Of a stretch of 64,000 nucleotides of DNA, positions 47,366-47,446 are shown piece after piece. Positions within the stretch are counted from its first letter, which is position 1. Each line of letters opens with the position of its first letter. This DNA is from a virus (Duplodnaviria > Heunggongvirae > Uroviricota > Caudoviricetes). A program made the position numbers and the translations under genes. The DNA is taken from the IMG/VR virus record IMGVR_UViG_2721755651_000007. The stretch is one strand, 5' to 3'. Below the pieces are notes generated by a model. That model was given only the letters and a program-made list of their open reading frames with translations. It searched no databases and was not told where the DNA came from.

Positions 47366-47446
47366 CAGAATACCGATAATGGACCGCCACCGGGGACTCC
47401 GAATCTCGCACAGGGTGACGTTCTTTCCTGATGAGCTAGTGGCGGT

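Follow-up and report, generated by a model that had tools for sequence, protein, structure and literature searches.

Among the closest described counterparts of the element analyzed here are the tRNA gene clusters of Shiga toxin (Stx) phages. Stx phages such as 933W carry an ileZ-argN-argO cluster upstream of stx, and O157 prophages carry tRNA clusters of this sort as well; the names ileZ, argN, and argO are used here for these tRNA genes. In the Stx2 phages PA27 and P27, three tRNA genes, namely Ile/Met, Arg(UCG), and Arg(UCU), are annotated at the place equivalent to our locus. In the prophage considered here, the same place holds two tRNA genes separated by a gap, and the data below make us confident that this gap is what remains of the second tRNA gene of a lambdoid cluster, now a pseudogene that is probably transcribed with its neighbors and discarded as spacer RNA. 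Literature searches on ileZ, argN, and argO and on Shiga toxin with tRNA genes returned no description of this relic, and it is unannotated in RefSeq.

The tRNA cluster and the gap between its genes

The window, by which we mean the whole 64,000-nucleotide stretch of DNA that was analyzed, contains exactly two tRNA genes according to both ARAGORN and the Rfam tRNA model, and both lie on the minus strand (Table 1). Chromosomes of E. coli O157:H7 contain the region with 100% identity, and in them PGAP annotates a tRNA-Ile and a tRNA-Arg alone. The first tRNA is reported as tRNA-Met by ARAGORN and as tRNA-Ile by PGAP; tRNAs of the ileZ type read AUA after lysidine modification, and the PGAP label matches this. 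Read along the tRNA strand, DUF968, RusA, DUF1133, hypothetical, and DNA methyltransferase genes precede ileZ, the gap, and argO, while argO is followed by the STnc100/AgvB sRNA pair, a SASA-family esterase gene, and holin and lysis genes. The prophage is lambdoid, and this part of it, with the tRNA cluster, is its late-regulatory "moron" region.

The argO 3' end and trailer (47282-47294, minus strand) are CA-rich (CACCACACCACAC), and CA-rich tracts are typical GcvB-binding sites; AgvB lies near this trailer. The Stx2 phages differ in that the argO trailer leads directly into a terminator composed of a GC hairpin and a T run. Between the tRNAs and the STnc100 and AgvB sRNAs, there is no stx and no other moron coding sequence. 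STnc100 and AgvB form a convergent pair directly downstream of argO, an arrangement that corresponds to the moron site described for EHEC prophages, a region rich in anti-sRNAs (PMC4104026).

Elsewhere in the window, two sok antitoxin RNAs of the hok/sok type (3764-3938 and 52149-52298) lie ~48.4 kb apart, as do other, weak duplicate matches (382-429 with 48806-48853, and 1897-1978 with 50314-50395). This duplication suggests that the window holds two related lambdoid prophage modules, with a tRNA cluster within the window for the second only.

Table 1. Positions of the tRNA cluster, the parts of the relic, and other RNA features in the 64-kb window
Feature	Position	Strand	Evidence or remark
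ileZ, tRNA-Ile2 with anticodon CAT	47522-47447	minus	intact, first in cluster; ARAGORN, Rfam tRNA model (70.9 bits), PGAP
Inter-tRNA gap, 80 nt	47446-47367	minus	sense strand of both flanking tRNAs
Single-base A junction, ileZ CCA end to relic	47446	minus	
tRNA relic, 66 nt, acceptor 5' strand through CCA end	47445-47380	minus	argN covariance model, Lys(UUU) alignment
Acceptor-stem 5' strand, CCGCCAC	47445-47439	minus	perfect pairing with 47390-47384
TAGCTCA	47438-47432	minus	
U8, A9, and D-arm remnant, GCTC / ATCAGGAAA / GAAC	47438-47420	minus	
Deletion scar, G TCACC CTGTG	47419-47409	minus	alignments and covariance-model local gap
T-arm remnant, CGAGA / TTCGGAGT / CCCCG	47408-47391	minus	
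Acceptor-stem 3' strand, GTGGCGG	47390-47384	minus	
Discriminator U and encoded CCA (TCCA)	47383-47380	minus	
A/U-rich spacer upstream of argO, TTATCGGTATTCT	47379-47367	minus	type seen after argN(UCG) in ileZ-argN-argO clusters
argO, tRNA-Arg(UCU)	47366-47290	minus	intact, last in cluster; ARAGORN, Rfam tRNA model (71.4 bits), PGAP
STnc100	46972-47180	minus	175 bits
AgvB, anti-GcvB sRNA	46911-46970	plus	56.6 bits
DicF sRNA	12461-12512	plus	75 bits; ordinary prophage/IS feature
ALIL pseudoknot, frameshift element of IS3-family insertion sequences	6415-6531	minus	121.5 bits; ordinary prophage/IS feature

A preliminary description of this DNA had placed an 81-bp, tRNA-like spacer between the two tRNAs. 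The location is correct, but the gap measures 80 nt, because position 47366 is the first base of argO. An acceptor-like pairing of CCGCCAC with GTGGCGG followed by TCCA, as well as a D-arm-like start (TAGCTCA), had also been described, the pairing with no strand stated, and all of these elements are present on the minus strand. Written as RNA, the 5' part of the gap reads A, CCGCCAC UA GCUC AUCAGGAAA GAAC G UCACC CUGUG, and the 3' part reads CGAGA UUCGGAGU CCCCG GUGGCGG U CCA, followed by UUAUCGGUAUUCU.

Tools for tRNA detection did not recognize this sequence. ARAGORN made no in-register call in the gap with default settings, at the 95% and 90% thresholds, or in mitochondrial mode, the Rfam tRNA model gave no match there at E<=10, and PGAP places no feature at the gap in identical genomes. 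The relaxed search that had been proposed for this spacer therefore came back empty, implying that the relic is not a working tRNA. Calls that ARAGORN made at 80% and 70% were out of register or on the opposite strand, overlapped the real tRNAs, and were rejected as artefacts. A search of 47200-47600 with all Rfam families at E<=10 returned noise alone (SMAD5-AS1_3, sR44, and Plastid-ycf2, the last on the antisense strand of ileZ). With the Plastid-ycf2 5'UTR model (RF04354), whose gathering score is 65.7, several bacterial tRNA genes give antisense-strand matches of just 29-37 bits, including 47449-47522 (plus strand) in the window and the tRNA genes of locus L243; these matches probably reflect tRNA-like content of the model and no real feature. 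A coding function was likewise rejected: the gap is crossed only by ORFs of 27-49 amino acids that overlap the tRNA genes, and by none of at least 50 amino acids.

The relic was also compared with a functional tRNA. A 7-bp acceptor stem with a discriminator base and CCA is retained, while the relic falls short in the other four of the five features that define a functional tRNA (RF00005 / cloverleaf), one of these being recognition by tRNA finders or the family model. The anticodon arm has been reduced from 17 model positions to 5 nt by loss of the anticodon and the 3' stem strand, so that the scar at 47419-47409 keeps just part of the anticodon-stem 5' strand and the variable loop, with a net 12 nt gone. 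In the D arm, GCTC faces GAAC, producing a C11.A24 mismatch that leaves three of the four pairs able to form. In the T arm, two of the five stem pairs are broken, one (A51.C63) inherited and the other through a new change of G53 to A, and a 1-nt insertion has expanded the loop to 8 nt (TTCGGAGT). The earlier failure to build either an anticodon arm or a T arm from this sequence is explained by the deletion in the former case, seen in both the covariance model and the alignments, and by the two broken pairs and the enlarged loop in the latter.

The residual secondary structure is of little help. There are 131 perfect 7-bp stems with 40-60-nt loops in the window, placing the acceptor pairing, taken alone, within chance, and the predicted fold of the gap is no more stable than that of shuffled sequence (z = -0.27), so structure alone cannot identify the element. 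It is homology, not the 7-bp pairing or the fold, that establishes the feature as real.

Homology to the second tRNA gene of lambdoid clusters

Two tests that are independent of the flanking tRNAs were employed. In the first, a covariance model constructed from 20 intact argN(UCG) alleles was run unfiltered over the whole 64-kb window. It matches 47445-47380 on the minus strand across model positions 1-77 (48.7 bits, E about 1.5e-10), with 5 nt in place of the 17-position anticodon arm, and it flags one broken pair in the D stem and two in the T stem. The next non-tRNA match in the window reaches 14.7 bits and the best match away from the tRNA cluster 13.2 bits. In the second, blastn of the gap alone against argN of PA27 produced two collinear blocks of 82% identity (E 3e-6 and 1e-5), in which gap positions 2-35 correspond to argN 1-34 and gap positions 34-67 to argN 45-77, flanking the absent anticodon region.

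A four-way alignment confirmed that the gap is collinear, column by column, with the middle argN gene of PA27 and P27, apart from a 12-column hole at the anticodon loop and the 3' stem strand. The comparison with the three-tRNA cluster of Stx phages that had been suggested for this spacer thus places the gap opposite argN. Like the second-slot genes of such clusters, the relic lies directly downstream of ileZ, on the shared strand, in a lambdoid late-regulatory region, and its homology extends over both halves of the gene.

Relatives of the relic were collected from IMG/VR by exact pattern matching. A first scan required the ileZ 3' end together with the argO 5' end, and a second required the ileZ end together with the first 11 bases of the relic. 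Together, both scans contain at least ~240 clusters and, among the matches listed, 68 distinct second-slot sequences, a pattern-selected set in which frequencies are biased. These sequences share the scaffold CCGCCA[C/U] ... [G/A]UGGCGG N CCA along with D and T arms, and vary chiefly in the anticodon arm, which may be that of Arg(UCG), Arg(UCU), or Lys(UUU), or may lack a usable anticodon in several cases. The Lys(UUU) allele is 77 nt long, occurs at least 47 times among the matches listed, and is separated from ileZ by one A, with tRNA-Thr(UGU) and tRNA-Gly(UCC) coming after it. Both ARAGORN and PGAP call it a tRNA-Lys, and the Rfam tRNA model gives it 44.4 bits.

Direct descent from argN(UCG) was our first hypothesis and was dropped when the second scan recovered the much closer Lys(UUU) allele. 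The relic is identical to the intact Lys(UUU) allele at 63 of the 65 retained positions (97%), and the two are separated by two substitutions and three indel events, compared to 4-9 substitutions for the UCG alleles. Four lesions distinguish the relic from the Lys(UUU) allele: a net 12-nt deletion, most simply of 1 + 11 nt, that takes the anticodon, A37-A38, the 3' stem strand, and one further stem base; a G24A change, through which the D stem loses its C11-G24 pair; a G53A change, through which the T stem loses the G53-C61 pair that is normally invariant; and an additional G in the T loop.

The junctions of the relic point to two different sources. In the clusters sampled, a 1-nt junction with ileZ is typical of ileZ-Lys(UUU) clusters, while argN(UCG) is usually preceded by a 7-9-nt spacer, with the UCG allele L202 as an exception. 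The 5' junction of the relic is of the Lys-cluster type, whereas its 3' flank, UUAUCGGUAUUCU followed by argO, is of the argN-argO type, and the cluster consequently looks like a recombinant of two cluster types. We infer that the progenitor was a 77-nt tRNA on the Stx-phage argN scaffold, most like the Lys(UUU) gene of ileZ-Lys-Thr-Gly clusters. However, L202 has C7, a 1-nt junction, and the defective GAAC strand of the D stem in common with the relic, and because second-slot alleles are mosaics of this kind, the progenitor cannot be named with certainty. When 5,426 complete E. coli genomes were searched with a reconstructed intact Lys gene in the ileZ and argO context, none matched it perfectly over the full length, and the best matches were to the allele with a 90-nt gap, at 98.1%.

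Collectively, the match to the argN covariance model, the collinear alignment, and the near identity to Lys(UUU) support the initial suggestion that the spacer may be a decayed third tRNA, with the refinement that its nearest intact relative, as far as the alleles compared here can tell, is the tRNA-Lys(UUU) allele and not argN(UCG).

Decay and variation of the second slot

Between these loci there is a single difference in the 76 positions of ileZ and a single one in the 77 of argO, compared to 6-9 positions plus 13 gap columns between the relic and the UCG alleles, a sign that constraint on the middle element has relaxed. The relic combines tRNA homology with structure-abolishing lesions between flanking tRNAs that are nearly unchanged, as expected of a tRNA pseudogene.

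The distribution of the deletion allele was determined with a 42-mer spanning the deletion scar, which was found at 411 places in 392 of 5,426 complete E. coli genomes, all of them chromosomal. These genomes are mostly O157:H7, including EDL933, with some O111:H8 and a few others, and the allele was also present in one Stx2c phage record. None of the 411 copies has an annotated feature. Since every copy is at least 99% identical over the junction, the deletion allele is young, and it is too uniform to test for selection.

Other alleles have also decayed. A sister allele with a 90-nt gap occurs in strains that include O145:H28 and O127:H6 (e.g., locus L006, 695-784, O145:H28 strain 16003). Here the anticodon arm of the Lys(UUU) gene survives, but a D-stem base is missing and C70T is present. 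ARAGORN still recognizes this allele, as tRNA-Lys(ttt); the Rfam tRNA model and PGAP make no call. It represents an independent decay of the progenitor of the relic, likewise in the argO context. An allele with a 100/101-nt gap (L007, 715-814; L005, 695-795; at least about 30 other IMG/VR loci) turned up often in the first scan. Its acceptor and D stems are retained, but its anticodon arm has become an AUAAC/GUUGU stem with a 3-nt loop, accompanied by an 8-nt insert. The T arm is intact in L005, and in L007 consists of a paired stem with a non-canonical 6-nt loop. PGAP labels the L005 copy "tRNA-OTHER", and the 100/101-nt allele is without an ARAGORN or Rfam tRNA call. Together with the relic, these alleles indicate that the second slot has lost decoding ability several times.

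A further group of loci following ileZ (L134, L142, L153, L174, L200, L204, L206, and L244-L266) displays a hypervariable loop within a nearly invariant scaffold, which reads CCGCCAC UA GCUC AUC[A/G]GGAA GAGC G [G/A]CAAC on the 5' side of the loop and GUUGU AGUA CGAGG UUCGAGG CCCCG GUGGCGG N CCA on the 3' side. Fourteen such alleles carry ten loops of 5-6 nt (UAAAU, UUAAU, AUAAU, AUGAU, GUGAU, UGAAU, UUUAU, CACGGU, CAUAGU, and CACAGU), and the stem is kept. ARAGORN reports the members that were checked as "tRNA-???" or tRNA-Leu(taa). Decay, diversifying selection, or a role as decoys are all possibilities for these loops.

Taken together, these observations show that lambdoid clusters can dispense with their second tRNA, which evolves fast. 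Its anticodon switches between Arg UCG, Arg UCU, and Lys UUU, it is exchanged between types of cluster by recombination, and it has decayed more than once, while ileZ and argO remain almost unchanged.

Expected fate of the relic RNA and comparison with known systems

Recombination appears to have placed a Lys(UUU)-like gene before an argN-type 3' spacer and argO. The net 12-nt deletion then disabled this gene, taking the anticodon with the 3' half of its loop and, from the anticodon stem, the 3' strand. Three further hits (G24A, G53A, and the extra T-loop G) struck conserved positions. Lacking an anticodon arm, the relic cannot decode. It is also very unlikely to be charged, because anticodon bases are major identity elements for both ArgRS and LysRS. 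In a promoter and terminator scan, the stretch from the methyltransferase gene to ileZ was devoid of promoter-like sites, and all three elements lie on one strand, so the relic is probably transcribed within a single ileZ-argO precursor; the absent promoter fits co-transcription from upstream but does not prove it. The relic would then be freed when RNase P cuts at argO +1 and endo- and exonucleases mature the ileZ 3' end, and the freed RNA, which we would expect to be inert, would be degraded.

The perfect 7-bp acceptor helix and NCCA end fit recent decay, but they would also fit retention for RNA processing. RNase P separates tightly packed tRNA operons in such a manner, and it is conceivable, if rather improbable, that the acceptor helix and UCCA guide RNase P to the 5' end of the relic, thereby freeing the ileZ 3' end; this role and that of a pseudogene are not exclusive. 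The relic begins one base past the CCA of ileZ, at a junction that is G+C-rich as opposed to a typical A/U-rich RNase E site, all four lesions fall outside the acceptor helix and NCCA end, and the other alleles sampled (90-nt and 100-nt forms) mostly have a paired acceptor stem and CCA. However, the acceptor and NCCA comprise just 18 of 77 positions, and four lesions would avoid them by chance with a probability of ~0.35, so lesion placement provides no statistical support for a processing function. Furthermore, a sister variant (L016, L219) has a C7.A66 mismatch. RNase P substrates have their T stem stacked on the acceptor helix, and in the relic two pairs of the T stem are broken.

A more speculative alternative, to which we assign little weight, is that the relic and the other anticodon-less or odd-looped second-slot alleles have been retained as tRNA-like RNA, for instance as an RNase P module for ileZ or as a decoy for tRNA-targeting nucleases, linking the slot to the evolution of anti-defence tRNAs. 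The prophage Lys(UUU) gene has C33 and reads U36-A-A-G-U-U, i.e., G39-U40-U41, while host tRNA-Lys reads U36-A-A-U-C-A (U39-C40-A41), consistent with the AriB site. AriB, the PARIS nuclease, cleaves host tRNA-Lys within U36-A-A-U-C-A, between the C and the final A, a U39A substitution alone abolishes this cleavage, and Lys(UUU) and Thr(UGU) are the two prime AriB targets (PMC12409363). The prophage Lys(UUU) might thus be an anti-defence tRNA, and given the altered Lys site and the presence of tRNA-Thr(UGU) in the same clusters, the second slot may be a place where anti-defence tRNAs evolve. The idea is weakened by the prophage Thr copy, which keeps the sensitive UAAUCA. If true, the O157:H7 relic would represent a discarded or repurposed anti-defence weapon. 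The ileZ-Lys(UUU)-Thr(UGU)-Gly(UCC) cluster itself was observed between Q and the holin gene (e.g., L243, 1519-1828, E. coli XH992; L128-L133).

It is less probable still that the excised gap RNA has a regulatory function, for example as a sponge of an Hfq-dependent sRNA. Transcribed spacers of tRNA precursors provide a precedent: as Lalaouna 2015 is cited in PMC5286369, the 3' external spacer of glyW-cysT-leuZ sponges RyhB and RybB, and sRNA-pre-tRNA hybrids have been recovered in EHEC by RNase E-CLASH (PMC5286369). The relic also sits in the anti-sRNA-rich moron region, with AgvB and STnc100 110-380 nt downstream. Nevertheless, the gap has no Rfam match at E<=10 beyond noise, its fold is not unusually stable, and descent from a tRNA gene accounts for its sequence in full. 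The leuZ 3'ETS resembles the relic by position only, as a segment that would be released from a polycistronic tRNA precursor.

The perfect acceptor stem, U8-A9, most of the D arm, a TTCG motif, and the encoded CCA might suggest a working but non-canonical tRNA or tRNA-like adaptor missed by finders, but this reading is effectively refuted by the complete absence of an anticodon arm, the loss of G53, the 8-nt T loop, the D-stem mismatch, and the failure of ARAGORN in relaxed and mitochondrial modes and of the Rfam tRNA model. A chance tRNA resemblance of an ordinary intergenic spacer, to which the many comparable stems in the window and the insignificant fold might point, is refuted by the covariance-model score, the 97% identity over retained positions to an intact tRNA-Lys allele, and the position between the same two genes as argN.

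Recognition of the pseudogene is of value for annotation, in that this prophage in O157:H7 (including EDL933) and some O111:H8 once had a middle tRNA gene, and its cluster of two reflects the death of that gene, not its original absence. The rapid evolution of the second slot is also relevant to the reason for tRNA carriage by temperate phages, be it codon supplementation or evasion of tRNA-cleaving defences. The relic itself brings no new mechanism, and the varied anticodon arms of the second-slot gene in other phages are more curious than the relic.

With respect to known systems, the relic is similar to argN of PA27 and P27 in its slot between ileZ and argO, acceptor scaffold, D arm, T arm, discriminator U, CCA, and type of 3' spacer, but differs in that the whole anticodon arm is gone, in having C7-G66 where most UCG alleles have T7-A66, and in lacking the 7-9-nt spacer after ileZ. 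The Lys(UUU) gene (e.g., that of E. coli XH992, annotated by PGAP) shares with the relic the 1-nt ileZ junction, C7-G66, U73, an anticodon stem that starts with GUCA, a UGUG variable loop, and a T stem that starts with CGAG; unlike the relic, it is intact and is followed by tRNA-Thr, whereas the relic has an argN-type 3' flank before argO. As in tRNA pseudogenes generally, tRNA homology is accompanied by several disabling lesions at conserved positions, and the element is missed by finders and unannotated. There is nothing unusual about the relic in comparison to such pseudogenes; it sits in an otherwise intact, presumably expressed tRNA operon, and for this reason is probably still transcribed.
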